Source of the DNA: Candidatus Omnitrophota bacterium
Lineage (GTDB): Bacteria > Omnitrophota > Gorgyraeia > B26-G9 > JBDRCZ01
Reading direction: 5' to 3'
Assembly (NCBI GenBank): GCA_043821285.1
Contig: JBDRCZ010000017.1
Coordinates: 15,947 to 79,946, forward strand
DNA length: 64,000 nucleotides
Under the pieces are notes generated by a model. The model saw only the letters and a list, made by a program, of their open reading frames with translations. It did no database searches and had not been told where the DNA came from. The translations under genes were made by a program, and so were the position numbers. This document shows positions 29,809 to 64,000 of the stretch, piece after piece (within the stretch, counting starts at the first letter, position 1; every line of letters starts with the position of its first letter).

Positions 29809-29834
29809 AATTTTTTGTCATAAGACAAAAAATT
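29809..29834 (-). terminator. Terminator of giant gene A
   Basis: TTTTTTGTC-ATAA-GACAAAAAA hairpin immediately after the stop (minus sense ...GCAATATAA TTTTTTGTCTTATGACAAAAAAT). Confidence 0.55.
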
Positions 29835-32820
29835 ATATTGCTTGCTCTATAAATGTCAGGTTTTGGAATTGCGGTTTTGGAATTGCTGTTGTACTAGGGG
29901 GAAAATTAGGAAGTGGTGGATATCCAAAAAATTCTCTGGCAGTTGGATTTTGAATAGATTCAAAAGTAATCATACTTGGTGTCCCTCTATAAGTAGCTAT
30001 TTCTCCATTTAATTTTATTGTATTTTCATTATAATCATATGTAACAATTACCTGCAGTCTCTTACCTCTCTCTCCGCTTCTTGTGAGAACTAAGACGACA
30101 TTTAGTTCTGTAATTCTGCTTTGCATGGTATAAACTTGTATGCTTCCAATACTTTCAGGTATTTTAAGCTCTTTACTCCCAATTTTTTTACTCTCACTTA
30201 TAACTTCTTCTTCAATAATCTCTAAGCCTTCTGGCGCGTGAATTTCTCGTATCGCTTTCATCACTTCTTGCTTTAAATCTGGTGACAAATTTTGTACTAC
30301 TTCACTATTTTCTATAAATCTTATTTCCCTTGGATCAGTCCTCCGGCGTTCTTTGCCTTTTTTATCATCAAGTTCAAGAAATAGATATCCCCCGGTCGCG
30401 GAATTCCACGAAATCCTTGTTTGACCTTTATCATTGGCAGAAAAATTAATAGTAACATAGTTATTCGGACTGATTGTTAATATTGTTCCTTCACCAAATG
30501 ACGCGTGTTTCACCGTATCCCCTGCCCGCAATAGTGTTCCGTCAGGCAAAATAAGAGTAGGTCGAGCTAAGTTATTAATTACACTTCGTAACGCTATTTG
30601 TAGGTTTCCCTGGGAATTATTTTCAATATCAGGATAATTTTCAAAAAAGTCGTTTTGTGCCTTTTGTATTGCATTATAATGGCCTAATACTGAACAAATA
30701 GCTCCGTGATAGATGTATTCCTGGCGAATTAATGGATTATCCTGTTCACAAATTTGCCTTGATAACACTAAAGCCGGTTCAGGAAATAATTCGTTAAATT
30801 TCGCCTCACCTAAAATATTAATAATCTCTTGTTTTGTTTCTTCTGCATGTGAATAGAATTCAAGCACATAATCATCTTCTTGATTAAACACAACAGCATC
30901 AGTTACAATAATGCGTAATGGTATCTCACTTCCTGCAGTAGTATGCAAATACTTCCTTATTCTTTGTTCTATTTGTTCTATATCTTGCTTAAGATCATCA
31001 GTTTCATCGCGATACTGCCTATGGGAAAGATTATAGAGCATTTGTTTAAACGCACGGTCACCTTTGCGGATAAAGCCGCCTTCATTGTCTGTCGGATTAT
31101 TTTCTTTTGATCCTTCTCCTAATTCAGGAAGAAGGTGATATTGTTCAATTATTGCGGCTATTTCTTCAGGGTCATTTAGATTTCTGTTCCTAATTTTTTC
31201 ATAAACATCCGAATGCCAATTATCAATAGCATCACCTATAGCCTCATTTGACAACTCGCTACCTTGCGTTCGGGTAACTAAAAACATATACGATAATAAT
31301 GATAGTTTCATAGAATTTGGCAGAGTAGGTTCTTTGAGCATTTCTAATGGGGGTAACATACGGTTTTCTAAAACAGTTTTTACTTGTTCTGGAAAATCCT
31401 TCATAATAATAGGCCACAGCTTTAAAAAATTAACCAATGCTTCTTGATTTATTCTTTCAGGTGGAAACGCCTGGGAGTTTTTTTCAACTATTCTTTCTAT
31501 AAAATACAAAACTGCTCTGAGAGAGAAAATTTCTATGTTTGCATTTTGCGGAATTTCAACAGAAGAATTAACCCGTTCTCCATTAACAAGAATTATTGAT
31601 TTTTCAAAAGATAAGTCGTTTGCCTGGTATGTGGCTGAAATATAAGTAAGTAGTTCTGCTACAGTACTGCCTTTAGCAGGAATTCTAATTAATTCGTCAT
31701 TCCTACTGCCAATAAGTGAAGCAGAGATTCCTATTGTGTAAGGTAAAAGACAAACACTTATCCTTTCTTGATAAATTTGGCGTGTCTGTTTAGTTATAAT
31801 TATAGGTTTGCCAGCATTATCCCTTACTTCTACCCTACCCTCGTGTACGGCATGAAGAAGATTAAGAAAATCATCTGTGCTTTTAATTAAATTTTTATCT
31901 TTAGAAGCTAAATCATTCATAAGGCTAAGGGCATTAAGAAGATTTGCCCTATCATAAAGAGGAATCAAGCCTTCATTAATGCAGCGCTCGAGGTCTTCTG
32001 GTGTTTGAATAAATCTTGTATTAACATGAATCTCAAGTATCTTTTTAAGCGGGGCCCCGAGCGGTTCGTATTTACCAAAGATAAAGTTAAGCCCGCTTAT
32101 ATTATACATAGGAATATTCTTTGATATTCTAACTAAAGCATTACCGTATCCAATAAGACAGATTTTGGTCTCTTCAAAATCTTCTCTAGCGATTAAATCC
32201 TGAACCTGTATTAACCCCCTAAGCACCGCCTCTCTCCGAATATCTTGAATGTGTACTATTTCCTCGCGGATTTGCCGCATCGATCCTATCTTGCGCAAAA
32301 TTTGAGTTAATATTTTGGTATAAATTATAAAATGTAATAATTGGTCATCAGCTTCAACAATACCTTGTTTTTCCATTAAATACTGGATTAAAAATGCCCC
32401 ATGTTCAAACACATACTTGTCTTCATCAGAAACGCTATAAAATCTAACCAACCATTTATTAAGCGAACGCTTAAAAGACGATAAGGTATCAAAGCGTTGT
32501 ATAACATTTTTTGTTGCTAACAGGGCACTAAAGATAAGATTATGGATAATGTGACTAATGCCAGTTCTCTTGTTTTCTTGTAAAAGTTTATCAGCATCGA
32601 CTATTATTTTAGCTTCAGCAGATTCTTTTGCTAAAGTATCCGTTGCTTCGCCAGGATCACTAATATCTTTTGCAAAAATATCGCTATTTATGCTTAAGGG
32701 AGGGGCAAGATGGGTGTGTAGGCCTTTTAAATTGTTGCCGGCGGCCCAGGAGAGGTCGAGGCAGAAAAAAGCGTTAATTAGCATAATAACTGTTAGTTTA
32801 AACCAAATACTGCGTTTCAT
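29833..32820 (-). CDS. Giant-family protein A (995 aa): shared signal peptide, ThiS/MoaD-like beta-grasp segment, small UvrD-C-like beta motif, C-terminal FIEQAI
   Basis: N-terminus MKRSIWFKLTVIMLINAFFCLDLSWAAGNNLKGLHTHLAPPL (family motif). VAELLTYI...SIILVNGERVNSSVEIPQNANIEIF resembles ThiS/MoaD. GDTVKHASFGEGTILTISPNNYVTINF resembles the GxxVxHxxFGxG tail of UvrD-like helicases. Confidence 0.7.
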   Translation of the reverse strand: MKRSIWFKLTVIMLINAFFCLDLSWAAGNNLKGLHTHLAPPLSINSDIFAKDISDPGEATDTLAKESAEAKIIVDADKLLQENKRTGISHIIHNLIFSALLATKNVIQRFDTLSSFKRSLNKWLVRFYSVSDEDKYVFEHGAFLIQYLMEKQGIVEADDQLLHFIIYTKILTQILRKIGSMRQIREEIVHIQDIRREAVLRGLIQVQDLIAREDFEETKICLIGYGNALVRISKNIPMYNISGLNFIFGKYEPLGAPLKKILEIHVNTRFIQTPEDLERCINEGLIPLYDRANLLNALSLMNDLASKDKNLIKSTDDFLNLLHAVHEGRVEVRDNAGKPIIITKQTRQIYQERISVCLLPYTIGISASLIGSRNDELIRIPAKGSTVAELLTYISATYQANDLSFEKSIILVNGERVNSSVEIPQNANIEIFSLRAVLYFIERIVEKNSQAFPPERINQEALVNFLKLWPIIMKDFPEQVKTVLENRMLPPLEMLKEPTLPNSMKLSLLSYMFLVTRTQGSELSNEAIGDAIDNWHSDVYEKIRNRNLNDPEEIAAIIEQYHLLPELGEGSKENNPTDNEGGFIRKGDRAFKQMLYNLSHRQYRDETDDLKQDIEQIEQRIRKYLHTTAGSEIPLRIIVTDAVVFNQEDDYVLEFYSHAEETKQEIINILGEAKFNELFPEPALVLSRQICEQDNPLIRQEYIYHGAICSVLGHYNAIQKAQNDFFENYPDIENNSQGNLQIALRSVINNLARPTLILPDGTLLRAGDTVKHASFGEGTILTISPNNYVTINFSANDKGQTRISWNSATGGYLFLELDDKKGKERRRTDPREIRFIENSEVVQNLSPDLKQEVMKAIREIHAPEGLEIIEEEVISESKKIGSKELKIPESIGSIQVYTMQSRITELNVVLVLTRSGERGKRLQVIVTYDYNENTIKLNGEIATYRGTPSMITFESIQNPTAREFFGYPPLPNFPPSTTAIPKPQFQNLTFIEQAI

Positions 32821-32930
32821 ATTACATATATGCTTTCATTCTCGTATTGAGTATCGCGTATTAATGTTTTAAATTCGAAATCCGAATATCTAAATGTTTA
32901 GAATTTGCCATTCGTCATTATAAGTGTTTT

Positions 32931-32958
32931 ATTTTATCTATCTAGTTGATCCTGTCTA
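32931..32958 (-). promoter_or_regulatory. Candidate sigma70 promoter for giant gene A
   Basis: Minus sense TAGACA-N16-TAAAAT. The -35 lies inside the conserved motif GATCCTGTCTA. About 100-nt leader. Confidence 0.35.
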
Positions 32959-33140
32959 ATTCGTTCTCGTATTGCGTTTTTTTATTGTCGTCTACTTGTT
33001 TTTATACTCAATACTCGATACACAATACACAATGCGTTGTTTAATCATTTCTCTCCGTGTTCTCTGCGGCTCTGTGTGATAAATTTTAGCTTTTATTTTC
33101 TGTCTTCTGAATTCTGATTTCTGTTTTCTGCTGTTAACTG

Positions 33141-36100
33141 TTAGATTGCTTGCTCTGCTATAAATATATTAGGTACTGTTATTTCTCCGGCACTTGGTAT
33201 ATCTTCAAGTAATGTGTCCGGTGCAAATACATTTTCATTAGCAGGATTGGCTCTTGTGGCTATATCTTTAGCGTTTATAACACGTTGTGAGCGTCTGTCC
33301 TTATGAGCACTAGTGTCATTCGTTTCCTTTTGTAATTTTGCAAGAAGAACCGGATTATCTTTTATTTCACGGTGATTTTTGACGTTGGGAAAAAAACCTG
33401 TTGTCAGTTTTCTTGCGGCGGTTAAATCATCAACAGTTTGAATAATCATTCCTAATTCACCATTTAAATCTTCGCTATGAACAACACCAGCTTCTAATCT
33501 TACCTGCATGCCTAATTCTGAAATCACTTCATTAACTTTGATTTCGATCGCTTTCAAAGTAGCGGCAATTTTTTCCGAAGTAATTATCCCATCATCTTCT
33601 CTATAAGCTCCTGCAAATTGATTATAAACATTGTTATTAATTGATAGAATTACATCATTTCCAACATTGTGGCCAAATACATCATTAATAACCTTAAATC
33701 CAAAATGCAATTGTGCAAATTGTGCATCTCCATTTAAGTCTGTTTCTCTGTAAAACTCTCTGTTGCCGCTTGCTCTTATGAAATCATTTATATTTATGGA
33801 TGTAGAACTAACTATATAATGTGCTGATAGTTTTATCAGTTGTACACGGTTATTTTCTCTTTTTATAACGAGGTAGAACTTATCAGGCCGTTCATGTACA
33901 ATACTGATTGAAACAGCAGATTTGCCGTCTAAAATGTTTTGAATGGTTTTGCCCAACTTATCTCTTTCTATTACCGGGTAAAACTTGTCTAAATCTTCTT
34001 TCGAAATACCCGCATCTATCATTTCCTGACGTATTCTTTCTCCTTCAACTCCTAATTGAAATTTTTTATCGTCAGCTATTTTAATCGGTGATTTTCTCTC
34101 TTCGCGCTCAGGATCTGGGCGTTCGGATAATCCTATTCCTACTAACTTGTTGGCATATTTAGTCCTGCGCTGGGTGTATTCCGCCTCATCTCTAGCAATT
34201 CTTAGTTGTTCCAATAGACTCATTTGGGAAATATTAGGTATATCACTTATTTTTACTGCTCCTACCGGGGCAAAGGGAACATAAACAGGAAAATAAATCT
34301 TACCATTAATATCAATGTCAAGACATTTAAGATTAGCGAGTATCTCGGATAGAACAGTGTTTTCATCCTCTTCTACATCTTTAGTGAACAGTATAAATGT
34401 TTCCTTAGAAGCCTTTTCTTCTTCTGGCGTTAAAAATACTGATTTTGTGACCGTAGTAATGTTTCTTTTTTTATTTTCTCTTAATTTTTCTATCAACGCA
34501 TCTCTGTTACTATCATTTATATTTTTTAGGATTGCAAAAACGTATTTTCCTTCAATCCGTTCTATGACCTTGCGTTGAATTTGTACGAGAAAGTGCTCAA
34601 TAACTTCTTTTGGCAACATAGGTGGTAACAAACCAACAACCTCATCACCACTAACATGATAAACTGTTCTACCTCTTTCTTCAATTTCTTTACGAGCTGC
34701 CTCAATTAATGTGTTAATTGCAAGTATATTCACATTTTCCCAGCCATATACATCATTTCTACCCCTTAGTTCGCTGATGTCAAAGAATATCACCCAAGCA
34801 TTGTCGTCGTGTCTACCTAAAAATACCACTGCTTCTTTTTCCCATTTTTGTGCATTTTCTGGATAGGCTTCATTAAGAAAGTTTCTTACGCGTGTTGTAT
34901 TATCAAATAAAGTGGTTAAATACATTATAAACTCTTGCAGTTCGTTATAGGGTTCGTCAGTATCTTTTCTACTTAAAAGAACATCTATCACCTTAGTAGC
35001 CGCGTCCCTAAATTGCTGATCATTAATATTTTGGTTAATAATTTTTCTCCACTTCTCACCTAAACGCTTTATTTCAGCCTTCAGAAACATTTCTATTGCT
35101 TCCTCATCTTCGCCTTGTTCTTTACACCTATCTACTTCTAATATTACTTTTTCTACATCTGCGCCCAACTCAAAAGCAAAAAATTCCCCATCTCGTTCCT
35201 GACTGGAATTTTCTCTTGGCAAAATGCTTGCCATACCTAAGCTAAATGCTGCGATTAAACCTGCGGTTCCTCCTCCCATCCCTGATTGAAGCATTGATGC
35301 TGCGGAAAATTCTGGTTGAGATGGGAAATAACCAAGTGCTCGCATTAATGTTCCAATAGATGCTGCTAAAAGCACGATGGATATTTTAGGTTTATTTCCA
35401 AACCATGCAACTAACCTCCTAATTAGCGTACCTAACCTGTTCTCATGGGAAGGACTTTTGTTTAATGCCCTCCAACCAGTTGGATGCATAAATGCTACAT
35501 TAGTTGCTTTGCGTCTACGATGAAGAAGTCCGCTTATATTTGCAGGAAATATTATTTTTCTGCTTATCCACTTTTTTACCTCATAAGCAATATATATTAA
35601 TGTTAAAATTATGCCCAAACCAGGTATTACCATACAATCGCTAATAAAATTATTCCACTGTTTAACACGAGCATAACCTTCTCTTACAGTAAAACTATCA
35701 ATAAAAAACTCTTCTCCCATCGGTGGCATGATACCAAACTTAGCAATAAAATCTGCCTGGTTTTTAAATGCTTCTGTTGTTTCTGGATTGATATCAAAAA
35801 AAGGAATAACTAATCGAGCAATGTTAAAAATCAACGTTACTGGGTTATGTTTTATAAGAAATTCCATTGGGTTTTTAGGCAAATTATCGACATGATGACT
35901 TAAACGCACTAATGTAACAGCGTATTCAAAAATTCCTCGCTTAGTAAAGAAATTTAATCCAATATTAGGATTACCCCATGTTCCATTCCATCTTGAACCA
36001 TAGACAATATCAAAATTGCTTTCACGGATAGGTGGATTATTTGTCATAAGAATTTGGTAAGTTTCGGGAGAAACTAATTTTATCAAAAATAGCGCTGGTC

Positions 36101-39100
36101 CAATATGTTCTGCTCCTTCAGTTCCATCTCTTCGCTCAATAAAATCGTCCAACATGCCCGCAGCTTTATATTCATTGTAAAGTTTAATTACGGCTGTATC
36201 GATTTCCTGAGCTCTTTTTCGTGCTGTTGATTCTATAAATGATCCCGTGTTTTCATCAATTTTTGATGCAAGTGGAGAGTTTTGAAATGTTTCAATTAGA
36301 TTATGGAATTCATTTAAAGCTATTTGTAATTCTCCATTATTTTCTTGTAATGATACAGGTTGTGGTAATTCATTAAGTTTTAAACTGTCAGCTGGTGTTG
36401 GCTGTACTAATCCACTTTTTCCAACTGGTTCTAAAGATACAATGTTTAATGGTGCAGCAATTCCGATTGGTGCTAATATGGTCTGTGATCCGATAGCGAG
36501 GATAGTGAGTAAAGGCAATACTACCTTACGTGCAAAAGAGAAGTTAACACTGTGTTTAAAACCCCAGCCAAAAATAGCTAATCCTATCAGTCCTATTGCC
36601 GCAATTACAGCACCTGGCAAACCAAAAAATAACCCTGCAAACCCAATTGCCATAATTAACCCATCGATTGAAAGTGCTGTGGTTCCATTAGGTAACCTAC
36701 GGCTGGAATTATTATCCGGCGCAGTAATCTCTACATTATCTCCATGATTAAACGTCTGTTCTAAGTCTTCTACGCTTCTGGGCAAGCCGTTAACTTTTAA
36801 CACCAACTCCCCAGACTGGAGCATTTTTTGTGTGGTTAGGATGGCTTTGCGATTACGATCATTATAATAAGAAATCTGTGAAGTAATAGTCTTAATAAAT
36901 AAATATGCCAGCAGATCATAGATATTTGTTGCGGGAATCTGTTCTGCTGATATCAGTTCTCTAATACCATCTTGTTGACTATTACTGGCTTCTTTAGTTA
37001 TTGTTAATTGGATTAATGCTTTTTGTTCTTCTTCTTGCAATTTTTGAGTTTGCTGAGTTATTTCATCCTCTAAAAGAGCTAATCCAGCCCTATGCTGCTC
37101 TAAGATATCTTTTTCAGGATCAAATTCCCCTTCAGCACAAATTATTAACCCATTTGGCATAATATAGTAGACTATATTGAGATAGCCATGTGTGCTTTTG
37201 CCGATCATCAGTGAGTTTTTATTATTTAGCCAACCTTCGTACCTTTCCTTATGAAGCATAATTTGTTGGCTATGTGTATAATATCTTAACGTTGCATTAA
37301 TAAAACCTTGCGCATCGGCTTCCTCTTCTTTACGATAAGTAAGTGTTGTTCCATGCCCAATGAAACCATTTTTATAATGTTCAGGTAAGTTCTTCCATTC
37401 TTTGTTCAAACCACTTTCAATCCTTTGATGCAGTGATTTGTTTCCAGGAGCCGGTATGACACGTTCTGGCTCTGATGCTAATATCTCAAAGCTCGTGAAG
37501 GCATAAAAAATATTTTCTCTATCTGTCGCAATACCCATGCGTGTTTGACCCAAATTATCAGTTACTACCTGCCAGGTTGTTAATCCTATTTCTCGAGTAT
37601 ATGCAATTAGCGCCAGTTCGTATATTTCTTCTGTTAATAGTCCATCATTTACCATCCGCACAAAAAGCTTAAGAAATTCGTTGCTGTGATATATAAACCC
37701 GACCAATATTACTAAAGAAATTTTTCTTAATCTTTCTGTTGCGTTCTCTTCCTTTTTGAGTTTACAATAGATTGCTTCTATTGCAGTAACACAATCACTT
37801 TTGTATTCTGAGCCTATTGGATCGTCTTCTAACAAGATATTCCCTAATATCTGAACCGCGTATTCTGTTCCAATATCACCTAAAAGGTTTTTAACAGCCC
37901 TTAGGCGTAAGTAAAGCGGGTTAGTTTTATCATTCAACGCATTTGTCACAAGTTTTTCTGCAGGTTCACCAATTCCTCTTATAATCTCCTCACCAAGCAA
38001 AAGTAAGTTGGTTAAGTTCATATTAATTATATATCTATTTGGTTGTTGAATTAATGTTCTCATTCGCTTAATACAAGATTCAATCACATGTGCTCCCAAT
38101 ATCTCTTTCCTGCCAATTTCAACTAAATAGTCCTTTAAAAGTTCTTTTCTTATGTTAGCAAGCTCATAAGCTGAATGAAAAAATAAAATTATTAAACTAT
38201 CAGTTATTTTATCAACCATTTGTTTAATAATATTGTTTTGGTTTTCTGCTCTGGGATTTATTTTTAATGCATTGGCAATTTCAGTTATAAACTGTCTATC
38301 TCTATCTGATAATTCATCCTGTTGAATTCTATTGTATAAGACGAATAAATATCTTATAAAATAATTGAGTACCTCAATAACAGTTCTAAGAAAATCTAGT
38401 TCAGTTTCGTTAAATACTTCTTTTTTTTCAAATTTTTCCTGTGTCATTTGCTCAAATATTTCTTTTATCAATATAACCACTCGTATTTCATTACGTTCTT
38501 TAAGTATGTTAATAAGTAAACGTCTTATCCTCAGGTCAGAAGATTGAAGCACGTATTCTCTTATGTGGGGAAATGCCCGCTCGACAATATTACCTAACAC
38601 CGAAGAGGCAATTGTAACACGTGTTCCGCGATATATTAATCCCTGTTCACTTAATTCTGTAACAGCAGATTGAAGATTATCTTCTGATTTTTTTGCAATC
38701 TCCGTCAAAATATCAATAATCACATCTTGTTTTTTTTCTCCATGATCAAGCAGGTGCCGGATAGCTTTTACGCCAAACCCTTTAACCAAAATATCTTTAA
38801 TATCAGATGTTATTTCACGATCTTCACTATGAGCTGATAAGGCATCTGTTAAAAGGTCCATTGCCGTTGCAATTGTATCTTCATCTCTATTAGCAAATTC
38901 ACCAAGTTCAGCCATATTATCAGTACGTGAAGCGCGATCTCTATACGTAGCTAACTTATTAATCACATCCTGTATGTAAGCTCTCGTTGTACTATTATAA
39001 CTATTTCTATTGCTAAAATGCTTTGTTGTATCTTCTCCCGGATTGCCCCAATCTTGTAAACTAGAAAAAGGTAACTTTAATCCACCTATTCCGGCAAATG

Positions 39101-39581: not shown

Positions 39582-40047
39582 AAGTTAATAGCCTATCAGT
39601 TAATTCCAAATGTTCCGCCTATCAAACCGGCGGACAGGCAAATAATAAAATCCAAATGACAAATGAATCATTTAATATCTCAATCTAAAAATCAAAATGA
39701 TATATTAAAATTCAAATATTTTTCTCTTTGACAGGATTTACAGGATTAACATGATTTTTTATCCAGTTAATCCTGTCTATTTTCTTATTTTCTCTGTGAA
39801 CTTTGTGTTCTCTGTGGTTATAAATTTTTTTATTTTTTTTAATCGTAATACTCAATACATGCTACTCAATACGCATTACTTTTTATAGTGTGCTCTCTGT
39901 GGTTAAAATATTTTTTGTTTTTTTATCTACATAATCATCCGTATTCTACGCTCTCTTTTATATGCACTATTTTCATTACAATCATACATATTGTAACCGC
40001 TAATAATTACAATCTGTTAAATATATTTATAACAATTTTAATATATA
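39582..40047 (-). promoter_or_regulatory. Long conserved 5' leader of giant gene B (about 465 nt)
   Basis: Shares several blocks with the 59037-59553 leader of gene E: conserved stem-loop TCCGCC-GGTTTGATA-GGCGGA near the start codon, CTCTGTG(A/G)TGATAAATTTTT boxes (CACAGAG in RNA sense), ACTCAATAC heptamers, AATCCTGTCTAT box. Confidence 0.5.
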
Positions 40048-40054
40048 CAAGTAA

Positions 40055-40082
40055 AGTATACCATATTTTTCTGATTTTTCAA
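40055..40082 (-). promoter_or_regulatory. Near-consensus sigma70 promoter of giant gene B
   Basis: Minus sense TTGAAA-N16-TGgTATACT (extended -10). Same sequence context (GTATACCATAT...TTTCAAGG) as the gene E promoter. Confidence 0.5.
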
Positions 40083-40419: not shown

Positions 40420-40447
40420 CTAAAAAATTGCCATAGGCAATTTTTTA
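40420..40447 (-). terminator. Terminator of giant gene C overlapping its stop codon
   Basis: Minus sense GCAATTTAA-AAAATTGCC-TAT-GGCAATTTTTT: 10-bp A/T-flanked stem. The stop-codon region GGCAATTT can alternatively pair with AAATTGCC. Confidence 0.6.
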
Positions 40448-47853: not shown

Positions 47854-47881
47854 CTAAAAAATTGCCGCAGCAATTTTTTAG
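47854..47881 (-). terminator. Terminator of giant gene D overlapping its stop codon
   Basis: AAAAAATTGC-CGCA-GCAATTTTTT hairpin; minus sense ...GCAATCTAA AAAATTGCTGCGGCAATTTTTTAG. Confidence 0.6.
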
Positions 47882-53756: not shown

Positions 53757-55227
53757 ACTTTGTTAAAAATCAGGTCTTTTCAAAAAAATCATTTACGTAA
53801 GTCGTGAAAACTCATAACTTATGTAATTTCAATACTTTACGTTAATTTTTTCCTTGACAATATCCACAACTCCTGCTATGGTATATAGTTGTAATCAAAC
53901 CACCGTAACACACAACAGGAGGTGGATATGGGTATTTTTAATCTCACTATTTCGGTAATCAATAATTTCTTATTTCGTTTTAAACCTGCCTTCTCAAAAA
54001 AACAATTTATCGTTTTCTCCTTCCTGATCTATGCTTTGTTTAAAGACTACAAGAGAAATTCCCTTTATGCCCTCGCCTCTAAAACTCCAATCAACTATCA
54101 GGCTTGTCAGTACTTCTTATCTGAAGGAAAATGGAGTATCGATGATCTTAATAATATAAGGTTAAAAATTATTGAACATCAAAGAACTACTTCTGCTACT
54201 TCCTCCGGCGTCTTAGTTATTGATGATACTTCTCCTAAGCCTTTTGCTAAAGCTACCGCCGGTGCTAAACGTCAACACTGTGGTGTCTTAAATCGTGAAG
54301 AAATCTGTAATGTTGCTGTATTCTCTGCCTTCGCCTCCAAAACTAAACGCTTCCCGATAAACCTTAAATCTTATCTCCCCGCTGAAAAATTCTTATTTGG
54401 CAAAGAGGATGTAGATTTTAAAAGTAAGCTCGATCTTGCCCAAATATTAGTCGATGATGCCTTAGAAAGAAAAATTAAATTCTCTTCCCTCGTCATAGAT
54501 GCATGGTATGCTCAGTCTTCACAATTCCTTGAGTTTGTTCACTGCCAGAGAAAACTGCCCTTCATTGGTGAATTAAAGTCCAATCGTAACATCTTCTTTT
54601 ACCATCCGCTAAAGCGGAAACACTGCTGGATCCAGCAGGATGAGCTGGTGAAACTCATCAAAAAACATTATCCGCATAAGTGTAGGTTTTTTACCTCCAC
54701 GAGCAAAGATGGTAAGAAGAAGTCTTGGGTCTTCTACACCTTCAAGGGACTGCTGAAAGATTGTTCTGTTCCCTTAAGCATAGTGGTGATCTTTGGTAAG
54801 TGGGATAATCAGGATGATAAGAATGTTCATATCCTTATCTCCAATCAGACCCGCCTGGCTACTAAGACCATCATTTCCACCTACCTGCTTCGTTGGGGAA
54901 TAGAGCTTATCTTCAGGGAGCTCAAGGATGTCTTCTCCTTTGACCAATACCAGGTTAGACATACCAAACAGATCGAACGTTACTAGACACTATGCCTTAT
55001 TGCATGGAGCCTGTTATATTGGGTCAAACAAAATGCCTATCTTACCAAAATCCTTGAGCATAAACCTGCTACCTTCTATGACTACAAACAGGCCATTGAC
55101 TCCTTACTCCTTTATGATGCTCATCAGTCTCTTTCAAAGAACAGTCATCTTGCTCAGAAATATTTTAAAATTAAATCGGATAATTTTAAACAGCAAATCG
55201 CTCGCGTTGCCTGATTTTTAACAAAGT
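53757..55227 (+). mobile_element. IS element (IS4/IS701-like DDE family), 1471 bp, perfect 18-bp terminal inverted repeats ACTTTGTTAAAAATCAGG
   Basis: Left repeat at 53757-53774 and its exact reverse complement at 55210-55227 (extendable to about 24-29 bp with 2 mismatches). Single transposase ORF inside. Inserted within the leader of giant gene D, between D and the terminator of E. Target-site duplication not clearly resolvable (CTAT/TAT). Confidence 0.7.
53922..55212 (+). pseudogene. DDE transposase of the IS, interrupted by an in-frame TAG at 54984-54986
   Basis: Track ORF 53922..54986 ends ...YQVRHTKQIERY*. The same frame continues TLCLIAWSLLYWVKQN...QQIARVA to a TGA inside the right terminal repeat (about 55212). 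The Y-x2-R-x3-E ... K tail typical of IS4-type transposases straddles the TAG. TAG is a genuine stop elsewhere in this window. Confidence 0.5.
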
Positions 55228-55285
55228 CCTGTTCTATCATTTAAAACATATAGTAGACAGCAAACTGTACACTGTAAACGGTAAA

Positions 55286-55313
55286 CTAAAAATTGCCGAT
55301 GGCAATTTTTTTA
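55286..55313 (-). terminator. Terminator of giant gene E overlapping its stop codon
   Basis: AAAAATTGCC-GAT-GGCAATTTTTTT; minus sense ...GCAATCTAA AAAAATTGCCATCGGCAATTTTTAG. Confidence 0.6.
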
Positions 55314-58300
55314 GATTGCCTGTTCCACGGCCAAAACCGTATTCAATCCTACTCCTTCAAGTAGCGGAAGTAAAGACATCAATTTCTGCATAGGCTTTTC
55401 ACCCTGCTGTCTGCAACCATCTGGAGTGTCTTTTCTTTCTCCATCTTCCATGAAACTCTGAGAAGCTAAATATCTCATTAGTTCTCCTGTTTGATTAGGA
55501 TTGGTTACTCTTACTATCGTAATATTTTCAACTTTAAGAACTAATCGATCATTACCTCCACTCCAAAATTCATCACCAATATATATGTCAGCTGCTGCAT
55601 CTATTACAGCCGCGGCTTTATCTTCTAAGTTTTCAGTATGTTCTTCTACAAAATCTCCCATTTTTTCATCATAGATGAATTTATGATACCCCGGTTCAGA
55701 GGATATGGTATAAAGAACAAGATTTTTTAATAAACCCTGCTTATCTTTCGGGATAGCAAATAATACCTGGCCTTTTACATTAAATATGTTTCCGCCAGTA
55801 ATTATTCTTAGCTTATATCCAACCTCAAGTAAGTTAAGGAATGCATCCAGATTATCTTCTCCGATTATTCCCCAGTAAGGAACAAGTGTGCCATCCATAT
55901 CTATTCCTATAACCTGAATTTCTTCTAACGGTACATGGCCATTTATAATATCATGGACATTTAATGGAGTATTTTGGGTTGTATCTACTGGGGATAGCGT
56001 GCCAAGTGTTTGTTTTGGGACAAAACTGTTTTCTTGCTCACGCTTTGCTATAAATTTACGGTGTGCAAGGACAATAAAGGTAGAAAGTGCAAGACCTTTA
56101 CCCTGCAATTCTTCTACTGTTTCACGGTTATCTTTAAGCTGCGGATCTAAATATGCCGCCAATAATTGCATAAGCAAAGGTTCATTAAGTAATAAATCTA
56201 CTCCCACGTTAACTTCTTGATAAAGTTTTTTTGCCTTTACATAGTCTGAAAAAAGTTCTCCTAATAACGAGGATTCATTGGTTAATTCCGCATACAAATT
56301 ATCGAATATTTCTTCTACAGATATTAATATATCATTGTACATTTCATCAGAAAGATGGCTTCTTAAAAATTCTTCTTGTTCTTGTACTTTCCACGGAGGT
56401 AGATATTTACTTCTCAAACCGTATTGATTTAAACATTGCTCTAACTTATAAAAGATTATTTGTTCAAGAACACTCTCATTATCAACTTTACTGATCAAAT
56501 TTTCTGGCAAGCGGTTTTTAATAAGATTTTTAAGCAGTGTACCAGTCGCCGATGTACTCAATCCGGTTCCATCAGCAAGTGAGTTTGGTGTCCATTCAAA
56601 AGGCAGCCATTCTGACACAACTATTCCGTGAAGATACTCTCTTCCAAAAGATATTCTTCCTCTTGTTCCTAAACCAAAAGTGTGAAGTTGAATGCCAAAT
56701 TGTTCGTTAAGCTTAGCATTTGTAACAGTGGAAGAGTCAGAATTTTTAAGAAGAGCAGCGAAATGTGCTTCAACCTCTGCTAATGAATCAAGCAAACACC
56801 TTGCTTTATGAAGAGTTACACCAGTTTCAACAATATCATCAATTATAAGAACGTTGCGGTGTTCTCTGAGATACTCGACGACCTTTGTATCATTTAGAAA
56901 TAACCGCAGGTCTTCAGGAGAATCTAAAGAGTATACATCTCTTTCAAAACCCAAACGCACCCTTTCAGCTTCTGTCAATAATGACCAAATTATTGTTGTT
57001 AAATTTAACTTTTGAGTAATAATCCAACTTTGGAATTCAGGTATTTCCTTATTAAATAAGTTATTCGCTTTTAACTGAGTAAGCAAAATTTCCAATGCTT
57101 TGGCAATTGGATCAGCTCCTTTTGAGGGAAAGATAACTAAATTTATATCGTGTTGGATTAAATATTTAACAATAGGAAGAAGTATAGGAGCAAATTGCAA
57201 AACTTGTATGTCTGTTCCTAAAGAATCTATGTCTCCAATTTCTTCACCTAATGCAGCTTCGACCGCCTGCCGAAGCTTTCCAGTATATCTGGAGCGATAA
57301 GGACTACGCAGATATCCTTCAATCGTTGGCAAGTTTTTTGCGATCTCCTTTTCAAGCTCTTCTTCAGCCCTCAAAAACATCTGATGCCCTGTTTCTGTCC
57401 TGAATAAAGTTTCACCCAGAAAATTGCCGTCATCTTTGCCTGATTTTTCATAAAGTCTATACTCTTCTTCAAGGCGCTCTTTATTAGTTTTAAATCTGGC
57501 TCGGATCTGTTCAGGTGTTATTTCTATTCCCGCAGCTTCTAAATCAGCAATAATCCCTTGATAAGTACACATAAATAATCTGTCTGCCTCACGCCATACT
57601 GTTATTAATCTATAAAAAGAAGAAGCATTAGCAAAAGGCCCTTCAAAATTAAACAAAAACTGTCCTTTTTCATATAAAGAAGTATCAACACCCATATTTC
57701 TAAGCTCTACTAAGGCCTGTTCAATAGAAGGATTATCATGAGCTTTTACCACACCACAGATTAAATTTACATTTACATCAGTTGCACTTAAAATACCGGT
57801 TGAAATTAATTGTTGGATTAATTCCCTAATCATTTCGGGGGCTTTTTTCATATGCGCAAGCCTAAACGCGATTGTGTTCTGCGCTAATTCTTTTGCCTTT
57901 AACGAATTTCTCTGTTCAATTTTCTTGCGTATTTGAATAATTCTTGCCCGTGAGCCTTCTAACTTGGCGTACCCAATATCATGTAATAAGGCTAATATTG
58001 CTGCGTTTTTAAATTCTTCATAGGTAAAATCTTCTCCTAATCCAATCTGCACCGCGTTCTCTAAGACTTGAGTATGATGATTTACAGGGTTGCCATTTGC
58101 TCCAGCTTTAAAATGAGGTAAGGCGCTCCAAAAAAGTGTGAAGAGAATATTTTGAATTTCTTGTTTTTGCTGGTCTGTAAATGTGCGGTCTTTTTCAATG
58201 CGGCTTAGTGCATTTTCCAAATTCTGAACTGCTAAACTTTTCTTACACTGAACAAGATAGTAGCCATTCTTTTCTTCAATTACTGCTTCTAATCCATTGT

Positions 58301-59036
58301 CTGTAAGAAATTGTTCAAATTCTGCTTTATTAGAAAAACTAAATCGACCACGTCCAGCGTTTATTGGTTCGGCAATCAATATTTCACCTTCTGAACTAAC
58401 TGCCCGAATATACTCCTTTAATAACTGATCACGTTCTTCACGATTACTAAACATGGTAAAGAACCGAATGCTGACCACTTTAGAAAAACTTCCGTCTTTA
58501 AACCGCATGTCCAAGGCACTGGCTTTTACCAAATCAACATTTTTGCTATCTTGCTTTCTATTTTGAGCAATGTTAAGTAAAATTTCATTGGTATCTAACC
58601 CTGTTATATGTTTGCAAAATTGAGAAATATAAAAAGTGAAATGTCCGGAACCACAACCTATTTCTAAAACTTCATCATCATTATCAATATTAGCTTCAAG
58701 CCAGTCTTTAGGGAAGTCTACAAGATAAGATGCAAGCGTACGATCATAAAAATAGGAAAAATATATCTTTTTGAGCCAATCAACGAGTCTTTCAGTCCAA
58801 GACCTGTGAGGAGAAATATCTCGTGTATCGTTAGGCAGCTTTAGCTGAGTTATATTTATTGTTTCTGCAACGTGTTCTTTAAGAATAGAATTATTTATTT
58901 GCAAAGGCGGAGCAAGGTGGGTGGACAAATTTTTTAAATTACCATTAGCAGCCCAGGAAATATCTAAGCATAAAAAGGCGTTAATTAATATAATCGCTGT
59001 TAGTTTGAATAATATATTTTTTTTAATGTTCAACAT
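55311..59036 (-). CDS. Giant-family protein E (1241 aa): signal peptide, class I SAM methyltransferase, HD domain, type I phosphoribosyltransferase-like and HAD-like phosphatase domains, C-terminal AVEQAI
   Basis: MTase motif I VLEIGCGSGHFT; HD: H..H ... LLHDIGYAK; PRTase: VLIIDDIVETGVTLHKA; HAD motif I VIGIDMDGTLVPYWG. N-terminus MLNIKKNILFKLTAIILINAFLCLDISWAANGNLKNLSTHLAPPL. SD GGAGA 8 nt upstream. Confidence 0.75.
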   Translation of the reverse strand: MLNIKKNILFKLTAIILINAFLCLDISWAANGNLKNLSTHLAPPLQINNSILKEHVAETINITQLKLPNDTRDISPHRSWTERLVDWLKKIYFSYFYDRTLASYLVDFPKDWLEANIDNDDEVLEIGCGSGHFTFYISQFCKHITGLDTNEILLNIAQNRKQDSKNVDLVKASALDMRFKDGSFSKVVSIRFFTMFSNREERDQLLKEYIRAVSSEGEILIAEPINAGRGRFSFSNKAEFEQFLTDNGLEAVIEEKNGYYLVQCKKSLAVQNLENALSRIEKDRTFTDQQKQEIQNILFTLFWSALPHFKAGANGNPVNHHTQVLENAVQIGLGEDFTYEEFKNAAILALLHDIGYAKLEGSRARIIQIRKKIEQRNSLKAKELAQNTIAFRLAHMKKAPEMIRELIQQLISTGILSATDVNVNLICGVVKAHDNPSIEQALVELRNMGVDTSLYEKGQFLFNFEGPFANASSFYRLITVWREADRLFMCTYQGIIADLEAAGIEITPEQIRARFKTNKERLEEEYRLYEKSGKDDGNFLGETLFRTETGHQMFLRAEEELEKEIAKNLPTIEGYLRSPYRSRYTGKLRQAVEAALGEEIGDIDSLGTDIQVLQFAPILLPIVKYLIQHDINLVIFPSKGADPIAKALEILLTQLKANNLFNKEIPEFQSWIITQKLNLTTIIWSLLTEAERVRLGFERDVYSLDSPEDLRLFLNDTKVVEYLREHRNVLIIDDIVETGVTLHKARCLLDSLAEVEAHFAALLKNSDSSTVTNAKLNEQFGIQLHTFGLGTRGRISFGREYLHGIVVSEWLPFEWTPNSLADGTGLSTSATGTLLKNLIKNRLPENLISKVDNESVLEQIIFYKLEQCLNQYGLRSKYLPPWKVQEQEEFLRSHLSDEMYNDILISVEEIFDNLYAELTNESSLLGELFSDYVKAKKLYQEVNVGVDLLLNEPLLMQLLAAYLDPQLKDNRETVEELQGKGLALSTFIVLAHRKFIAKREQENSFVPKQTLGTLSPVDTTQNTPLNVHDIINGHVPLEEIQVIGIDMDGTLVPYWGIIGEDNLDAFLNLLEVGYKLRIITGGNIFNVKGQVLFAIPKDKQGLLKNLVLYTISSEPGYHKFIYDEKMGDFVEEHTENLEDKAAAVIDAAADIYIGDEFWSGGNDRLVLKVENITIVRVTNPNQTGELMRYLASQSFMEDGERKDTPDGCRQQGEKPMQKLMSLLPLLEGVGLNTVLAVEQAI

Positions 59037-59553
59037 AATAAATATCTCCAGTTATTTAATTTTAAATGTCCCGCCTATCAAACCGGCGACAGGCAAATGA
59101 ATCATTAAATAATTCAATCTTTAAAATTTATTTATGTAATTTGTGTGATTTGTTGTTAATAAAATAAGTACTTGAAATCTTTCTTTGTGTGCTCCGTGTC
59201 TCTGTGTGACAAATCTAATATTTTTGTTTCGCTTGTCCGCCGTGCTCTGTTTGGCGGGTCATTCTGGTTTCGTTATTCGTTATTAAATTATCCTGTCTAT
59301 CATCCACAATGATTGGCGGATCTTCAATTTTTTATATTTTCTCTGTGAACTTTGCGAGCTCTGTGGTGATAAATTTTTTATTTTTTTTTACCGCGATACT
59401 CAATACTCATTGCTTTTTATAGTGTGCGCTCTGTGATGATAATTTTTGTTTTGTTTTTTTAGCCACAATGCTCAATACACAATACCCGATACTTAATCAT
59501 ATTACTTTTCATAATGCCTTGTTATAAATAAATTTATAACATCTTTTAAATAG
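59037..59553 (-). promoter_or_regulatory. Long conserved 5' leader of giant gene E (about 515 nt)
   Basis: RNA sense contains at least 6 CACAGAG motifs, TATTGAG/TATTGTG heptamers, an AATCCTGTCTAT box, and the stem-loop GTCGCC-GGTTTGATA-GGCGGGAC 50 nt before the ATG. Collinear blocks shared with the gene B leader. Confidence 0.5.
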
Positions 59554-59560
59554 TTTTATA

Positions 59561-59589
59561 AGTATACCATATAATTACGCAATTTTCAA
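59561..59589 (-). promoter_or_regulatory. Near-consensus sigma70 promoter of giant gene E
   Basis: Minus sense TTGAAA-N17-TGgTATACT, read from + strand AGTATACCATATAATTACGCAATTTTCAA. Confidence 0.55.
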
Positions 59590-59933
59590 GGGTTTGGGGA
59601 AATTTTTTTTGATTTTGTGATTTCTATGCTTATTGTTTTAACTATTTGGTATTAAAAAAGATATGGCATAGAAAATTAACAACAGCATTATTTAGGCAAG
59701 AATTGATTATATTTTTATTAAAGAAATAAATTGTAAGAGAAAATAATTATTACGATTAGATTTTATTGATTCTAAAATTTTAAATAAATTTTAACTTTAT
59801 TTTTCACCACAGAAAACACTGAGCCCACAAAGAAAAACTTGATACAAATCATACAAATATTTACATGCATAGCCTTCTTCCGTATAATCTGATTCTGCCT
59901 GCCTCCGGTAGGACGGTAAACAGTAAACGGTTA

Positions 59934-59961
59934 ACAAAAAGTTGCCATAGGCAACTTTTTA
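59934..59961 (-). terminator. Terminator of giant gene F overlapping its stop codon (covarying stem)
   Basis: AAAAAGTTGCC-ATAG-GCAACTTTTT. Relative to the C, D and E terminators, the A:T pair is replaced by G:C on both arms, a compensatory change. Confidence 0.6.
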
Positions 59962-62900: not shown

Positions 62901-64000
62901 TTAGTTCTTTTCTGCTGGCAATAATATGCTCTAATAAATTGCTTATATCTGTTTGTAATCGGTCATCTGCTGGTCTAACGACCGATGGTTGCTTATCTTC
63001 AGCAGTTGGTTGTTCTGTAGGAATTAATGCTATTGATACTTTTATCGGGTCATCAAACGGCCAATCAATACTTTGGCTTAGCATTCTCTGAAACTCCACA
63101 AATAATTCTTTACTGTTTTTTTGCCCATTAACCTGCTCTGCAAAAATTTCAAACATATCTTCTCTGGTAAGACTACCTTCAATTAACGGTCTAATATCGG
63201 CTGTAGATTCTACAAGAATCATACTAACCGAGCGCAGTGAATTTTCGATTGTATCAGCCTTAATAACCCTATCTTCTTTATCTTGCAAATATTCTCTGAT
63301 TAAATATTGCAGTGCTTCTCGGTTAACACTAAGGGTTGAGCTGGCAAAATACATTACTATCTCTAAATAGTACATCCGCATCTCTTGCTTTCTTGCCCCG
63401 GCAATTTTTTTGATAATTTCTTCAAAATAATCTTTATCCTCCTCAAGTTTATCTTGCCAGAGATTTGCTAACTGGTAAAGAGCCGTCCTTCTTGTATTTT
63501 CATCTCTACTTTCTCTTAGTTTTCTGATAAGCTGTGCTTCGCGCTGTGTAGCAAGATTTTGATAGATTTCATCTATTTCAAACAATATCTCCAATTTTTC
63601 TCTTAATTTTATTCTTTCATTACCCAAACGGCCATCATCCGTGCCTTGGAGAACTAAATTCCCTAATATCTCAATGGCACATCTCTTGCGCATCTTATTA
63701 AGCGGTGTGAAGTTATTAAAGGATGCTTCTATTAATACTAAACCCATTCTTTCTAAAGAAGCGCCTTGAGCAAAAAGGGTTCTAAAATATAGACCGATAT
63801 TATAGTGGTCCGGCGGCAGTTCTGTAAACATCTCTATTTCAGAACGGTCAACAATCTCTTGAAACAATATTTCGATTAAGATAGTTAGCAATCTGTAACG
63901 TCTATTTTCAACCCCAGTAAGATAGAGTACTAAACTATTAGTAAACTCCGCTAGACCAATTATTACTTCTTCTGGTAATTCGGCTGTTTTCAGTTCGGGT
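59959..64000 (-). CDS. Giant-family protein F, C-terminal 1347+ aa (N-terminus beyond window edge): helical-repeat module paralogous to C, TM pair, TPR-like and winged-helix-like C-terminal region, C-terminal AIEQAI
   Basis: Track start 63891 is a TTG artefact. The frame stays open to position 64000 (...PELKTAELPEEVIIGLAEF...). Contains a coiled-coil SR/QR-rich stretch (RRQRQRQRQRSP). FKASEVAEVLRDEFRNYRYMGTDRVRTVLNRLSEYGLLEKK resembles a winged helix. Confidence 0.7.
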   Translation of the reverse strand, partial: PELKTAELPEEVIIGLAEFTNSLVLYLTGVENRRYRLLTILIEILFQEIVDRSEIEMFTELPPDHYNIGLYFRTLFAQGASLERMGLVLIEASFNNFTPLNKMRKRCAIEILGNLVLQGTDDGRLGNERIKLREKLEILFEIDEIYQNLATQREAQLIRKLRESRDENTRRTALYQLANLWQDKLEEDKDYFEEIIKKIAGARKQEMRMYYLEIVMYFASSTLSVNREALQYLIREYLQDKEDRVIKADTIENSLRSVSMILVESTADIRPLIEGSLTREDMFEIFAEQVNGQKNSKELFVEFQRMLSQSIDWPFDDPIKVSIALIPTEQPTAEDKQPSVVRPADDRLQTDISNLLEHIIASRKELTALKGREQEITREIQNLQRRSEPRSSRRQRQRQRQRSPAPSNTERINSLNEELDRVQAEIQSLTETEEGDWEKLDSHLKNELRHVLVFFINKMRVHIQDNIEEIDMVIAVLAEILQRLNISPEDEELHDALFAVIVYTFIAGGDVSKIILIYIEKEISYLINTGLNLKANLASFVGLAAFAYHREDHELFDSLWGVLKEYVVLQDFSNVTNVLELALEQNTETAMEILYRMLTEIDNFLYKCLTVSRRDKDGNIEFTVDGVFLADYYLRLVIYLTFFHSDETLYERLVLLRPFSSILEETINETINLDTKEVILLPEFINIKRFFLHTYRPGINLEVSMMDALKQGINNFSPENALQQALELEFLASFLSREDIGLLKDERQEIIQKVNEIVQTVRKDDVGSYEFKIDSTPIERINIEIIARIYSSIQNPGQHPLTKAVMDDTLKGLVYLSQADARHVLFKVIAPYVTQDRGTVANQTYRILPAHKQEALEIAVRSAAEVYIRQDNVQLIMIRSLLREYFRAIYRGCNNREKVIVRSIIDEVIGKANLGNADLILSRERQILRFNVPLPHFVIQDRLRNRGAGRLIIPFDLAGVGGWAAVVFFYFFGEYLGFWQRATVLKWMEDKLEGKRYSEALIKVANWILTPPAFIAEVLRNIIPQKWQFAYTRGFDTTYNGVSPQSSTPARMIIPSHTRTSNQSTGKQFYPDSSMPMSANVYKALASKYIKEKYFAGAVDIFTEAAAWYAEEGAEYAENGFEQNDKEEYIKALSCYDKTIEYYKQILRISETQRINKGQIKNVPLLLSLAHLNKCIVYREMAAIDQEHKRELRDLSKEEFDQSYLSYWDNITLQENNQPGNEKVILRTVWANFANGREFKASEVAEVLRDEFRNYRYMGTDRVRTVLNRLSEYGLLEKKKDGGTSIYCYPWSEDEYGSFRNDPDELDQNNPPIKPSTALMIVSQPDDAPEINLFELDMVYAIEQAI

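Follow-up and report, generated by a model that had tools for sequence, protein, structure and literature searches.

Many bacterial protein-sorting systems serve numerous substrates per genome by combining an N-terminal signal peptide with a C-terminal tag that is common to the whole substrate family. Examples include LPXTG tags with sortase, PEP-CTERM tags with exosortase, GlyGly-CTERM tags with rhombosortase, and the C-terminal domain (CTD) of type IX secretion system (T9SS) substrates. In these cases, the tag is a motif accompanied by a transmembrane (TM) helix and a basic tail, or else a domain of 80-100 amino acids (aa). Here we describe a protein family of the phylum Omnitrophota that shows the same logic, although its conserved tail consists of just the last 6-8 residues and ends in a free carboxylate. 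The family was noticed as six giant genes in a 64,000-nucleotide (nt) stretch of DNA, hereafter called the window, from a metagenome-assembled genome (MAG) of a Candidatus Omnitrophota bacterium (assembly GCA_043821285.1, contig JBDRCZ010000017.1, positions 15,947 to 79,946). Its members share a signal segment at one end and a tail at the other, and this pair on otherwise unrelated proteins points to an undescribed protein-sorting route.

Signals that are far better conserved than the mature proteins of the same paralogous family are known from YSIRK-G/S signals, the extended signal peptide region (ESPR) of autotransporters, and the 5ˊ signals of Mycoplasma Vlp proteins, all of which are also tripartite with an AxA-type cleavage site. 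The present family differs from these family-specific Sec signals by its sequence (LIQAFLxLDIAWA/GG), by its obligatory tail, and by carrying giant cytoplasm-type enzymes rather than adhesins or lipoproteins. A purely functional analogy can be drawn with the accessory Sec system of Gram-positive bacteria (SecA2/SecY2), which handles very large substrates and requires a special signal peptide together with the first mature residues. In our family, the signal is likewise followed by a conserved motif of the mature part, L[AS]PxΦxΦ (where Φ is hydrophobic), and by a helix. In contrast to accessory Sec substrates, there is no KxYKxGKxW motif, no serine-rich repeats or linked secA2/secY2 genes were seen, and the phylum is diderm.

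Signals that reside at a free C-terminus include PDZ ligands (Tsp/Prc, DegS, RseP), ClpX C-motifs, the KDEL-type tails of AB toxins, and the D-x-x-x-hydrophobic tails of metalloproteases exported by type I secretion systems (T1SS). Like the tail described here, they sit at the very end of the chain, are only a few residues long, and finish with a hydrophobic residue. In AB toxins, moreover, the C-terminal tetrapeptide occurs together with a Sec signal and an enzyme dependent on cytoplasmic cofactors, a combination that the members of our family resemble in outline. To our knowledge, the tail consensus ΦΦ[EG][QRS][AS]I matches none of these signals.

Omnitrophota are ultra-small, uncultured, and probably predatory or episymbiotic bacteria whose giant proteins mix signal peptides and TM segments with cytoplasmic enzymes. 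According to the passages searched, 94% of long Omnitrophota proteins carry signal peptides and/or TM segments, and the paradox of finding these together with cytoplasm-type enzymes has been noted before (10.64898/2026.06.07.730766). The proteins treated in the searched passages of West-Roberts et al. 2023, Seymour et al. 2023, and a 2026 complete-genome preprint come from the same phylum, have the same mixture of features, and share HEAT, PPDK_N, NUDIX, HAD, GGDEF, and methyltransferase domains with our family. Those passages describe no conserved N-terminal sequence or C-terminal [AS]I tail. Our members also differ from these giants in being 0.15-6.3 thousand aa long, not more than 10 thousand, and in occurring in arrays. 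The largest has 6278 aa and those in the window have 995-3205, which places them below the 'giant gene' class of the phylum (>20-30 kb). A single genome can hold dozens of proteins with the signature, which defines a substrate set by sequence, makes phylogenetic profiling for the matching machinery possible across hundreds of available genomes, predicts a cleavage site, and supplies two short peptides. It thereby bears on the question of where Omnitrophota long proteins go and what they do.

A family defined by its two ends

The window comprises a plus-strand half with housekeeping genes (ThiC, GuaA, DnaE, HisRS, AroB) and, from 29.8 kb onwards, six minus-strand open reading frames (ORFs). These ORFs are labelled A to F in coordinate order (Table 1), and window positions refer to the whole 64,000-nt stretch. 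As stated in the initial annotation, which was made from the sequence alone, the six ORFs are consecutive, co-oriented and giant. Their products range from 995 to 3205 aa. The annotation had further assigned a common N-terminal motif to all of them, which is correct within the window for A to E. ORF F starts beyond the window, and its motif was confirmed from the database entry P0003, which holds the complete 3205-aa protein encoded on this contig (85,997 bp, locus tags of the form ABH952_015xx) and begins with MNNLTRTIWFRLIAIILVNAFFCMDISWAAGGNLKGLTTHLAPP. The first ~50 aa are the only part common to A-E (55-89% identity by blastp and alignment), and the rest is unalignable. All six proteins end in E-[QR]-A-I, also as proposed, and a six-frame scan of the window found the N- and C-terminal motifs confined to these gene ends except for one THLSP, which is internal to F and unrelated.

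Between the ends, the proteins had been regarded as unrelated apart from a C-terminal module in C and F. This module is indeed shared (590 aa, 36% identity by blastp, residues 1734-2297 of C), but a second, TM-containing module common to C and F had been missed (residues 715-970 of C). The body of A has no homologue besides itself among 5.8e9 proteins and no Pfam or PDB match, and no PDB relatives were found by sequence for A, B, or C.

The suggestion that a hidden Markov model (HMM) of the N-termini might reveal further members proved fruitful. When an N-terminal profile of nine sequences was run exhaustively with HMMER against 1.84e9 representative proteins, it gave 84 matches at E<=1e-3, nearly all at residues 1-50 of proteins that are 67 to 6278 aa long, and the family thus extends well beyond the array. 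Exact look-ups assigned at least 29 of these matches to this same MAG, where they lie on more than 10 contigs and the coding sequence of at least 29 members totals ~110 kb. All other matches that were looked up and bear a name are from Omnitrophota/Omnitrophica or the 'PVC group'. A word-indexed search with a 5-sequence profile (one match) and narrow patterns applied to contigs (no matches) had made the signature appear nearly unique, but this was a problem of sensitivity that the HMMER result overturned. With broader patterns, 19 loci from ~10 Omnitrophota MAGs and 15 metagenome loci (34 in all) were collected. Members in these loci form co-oriented tandem arrays of two to six genes, with six in a row in locus L028, and are separated by a median of ~100 nt, some even overlapping. 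So far, Omnitrophota (PVC group) is the only phylum in which the family is known, and what defines it is the pair of ends, not the body.

The pairing of the two ends is not a matter of chance. Among the complete genes of the 34 loci and the window, 31 of the 33 that carry the N-terminal signature end in [AS]-I, compared to 7 of 100 others (Fisher p = 3e-21). Six of these seven exceptions have a hydrophobic, signal-like N-terminal stretch that the HMM missed, most clearly ..CFA/QSS...TLSPHI.. and ..VFA/LNN.., which indicates that the tail goes with signal-bearing proteins generally. The remaining exception comes from a frameshifted member, of which it is the downstream half. In locus L013, one member is apparently split by a frameshift into 3633-4265 (210 aa, with the signal) and 4252-6882 (876 aa, tail ...FINQAI), reflecting either a sequencing error or a pseudogene.

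Conservation at the DNA level, reported in the initial annotation for the 5ˊ ends of the genes, is real, as ~175 nt are detectable as a repeat in five copies with 63-89% identity. Such repeats, together with that of the stop-hairpin region, are what would be expected if the ends had no function and stemmed from a collapsed assembly, from recent duplication, or from gene conversion acting on a 5ˊ/3ˊ cassette. The pair B and C is also in line with this explanation, with 89% identity at the 5ˊ end and a proportion of synonymous differences (pS) of just 0.30 over the 38 codons shared by A-E. For the remaining pairs, however, pS is 0.5-0.84 and therefore near saturation. The proportion of nonsynonymous differences (pN) over all pairs is low, at 0.04-0.21, giving dN/dS values of ~0.05-0.2 where computable. 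Saturated synonymous sites with few amino-acid changes reveal purifying selection on the peptide, and the likeness of the 5ˊ DNA is a by-product of this conservation. Because the signature also occurs with long intact ORFs in independent assemblies of many genomes, the artefact and gene-conversion explanation was ruled out, and we assign it next to no probability. The notion of a shared cassette stands in part, since some upstream and downstream non-coding blocks are shared and might provide a common expression context, but the synonymous saturation speaks against a recombination cassette.

Anatomy of the signal segment and the tail

Signal anatomy was scored over 107 non-redundant N-termini and agrees with the signal-peptide architecture first proposed for the window genes. 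The n-region averages ~10 residues with a net charge of +4. The h-region has 13 residues in 98 cases and the consensus hydrophobic-I-A-hydrophobic-hydrophobic-L-I-[QN]-A-F-L-x-L. It is followed by a c-region of the form D-hydrophobic-[AS]-W-A, most commonly DIAWA or DISWA, after which AGG or GG usually follows. Position -3 is A/S/V/C/T and position -1 is A/S/C/G in all 107 sequences. The mean charge of the N-terminal flank (+4) exceeds that of the C-terminal flank (-0.35), and the N-terminal flank is the more positive in 106 sequences. By classical rules, this arrangement is a textbook fit to a Sec signal cleaved by signal peptidase I (SPase I), and cleavage is predicted. The Q/N, F, D, and W residues within the signal are near-invariant, a degree of conservation unusually high for a signal peptide. 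In the mature part, 10-15 residues past the predicted site, lies the motif L-[AS]-P-x-hydrophobic-x-hydrophobic, followed by a short helix.

The failure of the initial annotation to match the signature to a described sorting signal was confirmed by specific comparisons. No Pfam-A or NCBIfam model matches either terminus. A lipobox, [LVI][ASTVI][GAS]C with an invariant Cys, is not present, as the Cys of AFLCLD comes after L/F and most other lineages have L/V/I in its place. None of the aligned N-termini contains the RR of the Tat motif (S/T-R-R-x-F-L-K), and the type IV pilin (class III) motif G|F/M-T-L-x-E, which follows a short basic leader, is absent from the alignment.

The GG or xG that follows the AWA site in most members raises the alternative that the N-terminus is a double-glycine leader cut by the C39 peptidase of an ABC exporter (T1SS/PCAT-like), with the C-terminal amphipathic helix serving as a T1SS-like signal. 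T1SS handle giant unfolded substrates and use C-terminal signals. In addition, C39 domains are reported in Omnitrophota giant proteins in the literature passages searched. However, the segment has a hydrophobic core and a basic n-region unlike the amphipathic double-glycine leaders of ~15-25 aa, and the GG is neither invariant nor fixed in register (AGG, GGT, ANG, AVG). No RTX repeats were found, nor C39 or ABC genes in the window or among recurrent neighbours of the arrays. Overall, this route appears improbable.

The conservation of the h- and c-regions, which is far above what Sec requires, could alternatively reflect a role after cleavage. The released fragments (...LIQAFLxLDIAWA) would then be signalling or membrane-active peptides, similar to the enterococcal pheromones that M50 proteases cut from lipoprotein signal peptides. 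One member, P0006, contains a site-2 protease (M50) domain, and protein Y, encoded upstream of arrays in other genomes, has motifs that may recall the TraB/PrgY superfamily. This proposal leaves the coupled C-terminal tail and the L[AS]P motif of the mature part unexplained, and we consider it slightly more improbable still than the double-glycine route.

The tail logo was built from 94 non-redundant proteins and corresponds to the consensus hydrophobic-x-hydrophobic-[IV]-[EG]-[QRS]-[AS]-I-COOH. Its positions are L/V/I at -8, L/F/A/I at -6, I/V (87%) at -5, E (47%) or G (20%) at -4, Q (59%), R, or S at -3, A (70%) or S (30%) at -2, and I at -1. Conservation stops beyond about -8, where a hydrophilic disordered stretch precedes the tail in place of a terminal TM helix. 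The residue spacing fits a two-turn amphipathic helix. The tail codons vary synonymously (GAG/GAA, CAA/CAG, ATA/ATC/ATT). The possibility that the Ala-Ile codons are kept only for pairing with a terminator stem was rejected, given that the stem of A differs in sequence and B lacks a hairpin while both proteins end in EQAI, and thus the tail is no by-product of a terminator.

Known C-terminal signals do not account for this tail. Conservation of only the last 6-8 residues, the lack of a TM helix, and the absence of NCBIfam matches set it apart from LPXTG, PEP-CTERM, and GlyGly-CTERM tags. The C-termini likewise have no Pfam or NCBIfam match and no conservation past about -8 that would suggest a T9SS CTD. 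Members carry a signal peptide and no RTX repeats were found, which is unlike T1SS/RTX substrates, whose nonapeptide repeats and C-terminal signal of ~50 aa come without a Sec signal. The pattern Φ-x-Φ-Φ-x-x-a-Φ with its terminal Ile and predicted helical conformation differs from the β-signal of outer membrane proteins, in which hydrophobic residues alternate and the last residue is aromatic, usually Phe. No transfer-messenger RNA (tmRNA), whose tag could be compared with the tail, was found in the window or in loci L001-L019. As a sorting tag, if it is one, the tail would be among the shortest known, comprising the last 6-8 residues and the free carboxylate.

To view both ends in a natural minimal member, the 152-aa protein P0025 was modelled with AlphaFold2 using the family alignment. 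In the model (pTM 0.30), the signal forms a helix at residues 3-29 with high pLDDT, the L-S-P segment is coil, and another helix spans 51-65. Then ~80 residues are disordered before a last, C-terminal helix at 144-151. This layout suggests that both ends act as short linear motifs independent of cargo. Intramolecular pairing of the N- and C-terminal motifs receives no support from the model, which has no compact fold.

Cargo, predicted membrane topology, and the proposed role of the ends

Stripping the ends from 108 proteins left bodies that fall into 60 BLAST clusters. The presence of cytoplasmic-type enzyme domains, pointed out earlier for the window genes, was borne out throughout the family. 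The clearest case is D, which includes a transketolase N domain at residues 677-956 (Pfam E = 5e-51) with an intact thiamine diphosphate (ThDP) motif, GDGEEQEG...N at residue 831. The protein scores 478.8 bits against NF004559 (cutoff 488) and is ~50% identical to the split transketolase 6yak. The half of the enzyme containing the Pyr and C domains is present twice (~1022-1315 and ~1532-1818, 31% identity), its best PDB match being split-chain, and a remnant of the duplication persists as a DNA repeat (48392-48449 versus 49910-49967, 83%). With N, Pyr, and C domains and the GDG(x)25-30N motif, the D body is predicted to be a transketolase.

Beyond its methyltransferase domain (Table 1), E has weak matches to PRTase-like (725-767) and HAD-like (1038-1107) domains. 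Within the window, F has a region resembling SNAP/TPR and a winged-helix (Penicillinase_R-like) domain in addition to the module it has in common with C. Among the other members there are PGK-like, guanylate kinase, NDK, PGI, PPDK_N with PEP-utilizers, methyltransferase, NUDIX, HD_4, ACT, SF1-helicase AAA, HEAT, DUF218, and GDPD domains, as well as the M50 domain of P0006. There is also a ~270-aa, TM-flanked domain with an HExxH motif, which we call module X, in P0068, P0072, P0075, P0076, P0086, and the L011 gene at 9977-18913. Residues ~1040-1320 of B are a degenerate copy in which HExxH is lost (RLSHH). An AlphaFold2 model of module X (pLDDT 70.6) had no significant Foldseek match in PDB.

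The initial annotation saw the architecture of a surface or secreted protein family, but the topology calls indicate that the proteins are not simply of that kind. Using a Kyte-Doolittle (KD) heuristic rather than a trained predictor, one to more than six internal TM-like segments were called in 50 of 76 complete members and none in 26. No internal segment was called in E at KD>=1.9. Internal TM clusters are found in B, C, D, and F, and these four proteins and about two-thirds of all members are probably polytopic membrane proteins.

We favour the explanation, which we regard as being about evenly balanced between right and wrong, that both ends are targeting signals: a dedicated variant of the Sec signal and a sorting or docking tag at the free C-terminus that together frame interchangeable cargo. 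The N-terminus would direct the chain to the cytoplasmic membrane and then across or into it. That its conservation is sequence-specific implies recognition by a particular factor, which might be a specialized peptidase, a chaperone, or a partner of the translocon. Located after a disordered linker, the tail would be a second short linear signal, recognized by a partner that binds the carboxylate. Almost any cargo could be inserted between the two signals, from captured housekeeping enzymes and regulators to TM modules and ORFan sequence. This would yield a hypervariable arsenal of large proteins, inserted into the envelope or exported, which in a predatory or episymbiotic phylum plausibly acts at the cell surface or inside the host cell. 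The signature and its anatomy, the purifying selection, the joint occurrence of the ends, the arrays, the distribution in the phylum, and the cargo content are direct observations. That the signal is cleaved, the proteins are exported, and the tail serves in sorting is inferred, as are the destination and the machinery.

Several observations weigh against this explanation. The recognizable cargo domains are all of a cytoplasmic type and need ATP, S-adenosylmethionine (SAM), phosphoribosyl pyrophosphate (PRPP), or ThDP, and there are no Ig/FN3/CBM-type or other typical extracellular domains among the domain matches of the members. In the TM-free proteins E, P0049 (PPDK_N at 120-447), and P0019, an ATP- or SAM-dependent domain comes directly after the signal, and plain Sec export would deliver it to a place where its cofactor is not expected. 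The heuristic nature of the TM calls is a further weakness, and no candidate receptor is encoded within the window.

In the main alternative, the proteins are membrane-tethered enzymes whose bodies remain on the cytoplasmic side. The N-terminal segment would stay uncleaved as an anchor, or as an assembly helix whose Q/N, F, D, and W residues contact a membrane partner common to the family, and the C-terminal helix would serve for docking in the cytoplasm or as a degron like the C-motifs of ClpX. In this regard, the MuA signal for ClpX (...RRKKAI) ends in AI like the tail, and ssrA (...LAA) is also a C-motif. The solely cytoplasm-type repertoire and the intact catalytic motifs of the transketolase accord with tethering. 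The positive-inside signals of D conflict, but the 19 residues past its last TM segment hold five K/R, which favours a cytoplasmic transketolase. Moreover, proteins with TM segments only and a cytoplasm-facing body are the commonest class of long Omnitrophota proteins in the passages searched (10.64898/2026.06.07.730766).

Although tethering accounts for the cargo, it contradicts the charge distribution and the AxA site. An n-region of +4 against a downstream flank near zero in 106 of 107 sequences predicts an N-in/C-out orientation. The -3/-1 motif for SPase is perfect, and a 13-residue h-region is too short for a stable anchor. Divergent members with ordinary, cleavable-looking signal peptides nevertheless keep the same tail. 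We consider tethering rather unlikely.

A more specific form of the targeting explanation can be offered only tentatively, as we judge it rather unlikely. Together, the two ends might label the substrates of a secretion or delivery system of Omnitrophota, as yet undescribed, which moves large cytoplasm-type enzymes (transketolase, dikinases, kinases, methyltransferases) out of the cell and into the cells of prey or hosts, or else into an extracytoplasmic compartment that is energised. The arrays would then be a fast-evolving effector arsenal, and protein Y, a recurrent neighbour of the arrays, would be part of the machinery.

Gene neighbourhood and non-coding elements

In other genomes, the recurrent neighbours of member arrays are small PilZ proteins (the commonest), an MFS_2/GH2 block, and protein Y. 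Small PilZ neighbours are also reported for Omnitrophota giant genes in the passages searched (bioRxiv 10.1101/2023.11.21.568195). Protein Y (550-567 aa, ordinary signal peptide) is 65-85% identical between genomes and is located immediately upstream of member arrays, on the same strand, in eight loci. It does not occur in the window. No Pfam, NCBIfam, or PDB match was found for it, while its motifs IQDLHCNY, SVEGGSG, and ITGGFHT(D/E)G may recall the TraB/TIKI-type (TraB/PrgY) superfamily. Protein Y is the best candidate partner of the family.

Table 1. Coordinates of family genes, their terminal codons, associated non-coding features, and protein Y genes. Positions refer to the window unless another locus is named.
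Feature	Position	Strand	Description
ORF A	29833-32820	-	995 aa; signal peptide, ORFan body, 0 internal TM-like segments, tail ...TFIEQAI
ORF B	33141-39581	-	2146 aa; signal peptide, TM clusters 93-111, 970-1045, ~1313, ~1400, tail ...IFIAEQAI
ORF C	40445-47536	-	2363 aa; signal peptide, TM cluster 683-812, tail ...LFEIERAI
ORF D	47878-53553	-	1891 aa; signal peptide, TM segments 611-671, transketolase domains, tail ...MLAVEQAI
ORF E	55311-59036	-	1241 aa; signal peptide, then directly SAM methyltransferase (118-236), tail ...VLAVEQAI
ORF F	59959->64000	-	C-terminal 1346 aa of 3205-aa protein; start beyond window; tail ...VYAIEQAI
A signal-peptide codons	32743-32820	-	26 aa; predicted SPase I site DLSWA/AGNN; HLAPPLSI at 32689-32712
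B signal-peptide codons	39495-39581	-	29 aa; predicted site DISWA/AGGN; HLAPELQI at 39441-39464
C signal-peptide codons	47450-47536	-	29 aa; predicted site DISWA/AGGN; HLAPPLEV at 47396-47419
D signal-peptide codons	53467-53553	-	29 aa; predicted site DISWA/ANSN; HLSPPLEI at 53413-53436
E signal-peptide codons	58950-59036	-	29 aa; predicted site DISWA/ANGN; HLAPPLQI at 58896-58919
A tail octapeptide codons	29836-29859	-	conserved E-[QR]-A-I end
B tail octapeptide codons	33144-33167	-	conserved E-[QR]-A-I end
C tail octapeptide codons	40448-40471	-	conserved E-[QR]-A-I end
D tail octapeptide codons	47881-47904	-	conserved E-[QR]-A-I end
E tail octapeptide codons	55314-55337	-	conserved E-[QR]-A-I end
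F tail octapeptide codons	59962-59985	-	conserved E-[QR]-A-I end
A stop hairpin	29807-29836
C stop hairpin	40421-40447
D stop hairpin	47854-47881		12-bp perfect palindrome
E stop hairpin	55287-55311
F stop hairpin	59935-59961
Upstream non-coding region of B	39600-39935	-	several blocks 79-91% identical to region upstream of E (59056-59470)
Protein Y gene, L011	4649-6343
Protein Y gene, L018	8105-9808
Protein Y gene, L030	7962-9614
Protein Y gene, L012	1-1503
Protein Y genes, L019, L027, L028, L034			gene tails

In five of the six genes, the stop codon is contained within a perfect or near-perfect palindromic hairpin of 10-12 bp, the stem of A having a different sequence and B lacking the hairpin. 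These structures are probably bidirectional terminators. On the 3ˊ side of the C and D hairpins is a conserved element with a GTTTACC repeat and the sequence CCTCCC..GGGAGGCAGGCAG, which is 89% identical over 65 nt. The blocks shared by the regions upstream of B and E include a CGCCGG..GGCGG hairpin ~50 nt before the ATG, and their identity (79-91%) is greater than that of the signal-peptide codons of the two genes (63%). They may be regulatory sequence common to both genes, or else an intergenic repeat of the dispersed kind. No known RNA elements were found in the intergenic regions.

Many intergenic regions consist of short heptamer tandem repeats (CAATACT, GTATTGT, ATACACA, TTTCTGA, AAACTGT), which are located at 7481-7521, 29593-29614, 33004-33033, 33097-33130, 55262-55287, 59464-59492, and other sites. 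These repeats are reminiscent of the heptanucleotide short tandemly repeated repetitive (STRR) sequences of cyanobacteria.

Other genes near the array include one for an H-NOX (haem NO-binding) protein directly downstream of A (28969-29508, minus strand), which is followed by an ACT-domain protein. A DDE-type transposase gene lies between D and E on the opposite strand (53922-54986, plus strand). An IS200-like Y1 transposase gene is present downstream of the array (27148-27954, minus strand), and relatives of it adjoin members in loci L001 and L004. Upstream, the other strand carries three cyclic di-GMP-related genes. The product of the first has a PilZ domain fused to an ATPase of the type II secretion/type IV pilus kind (11321-12718, plus strand). 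The second, for a small PilZ protein (16739-17125, plus strand), overlaps the start of the third, for a GAF-HD-GYP protein (17125-18621, plus strand).

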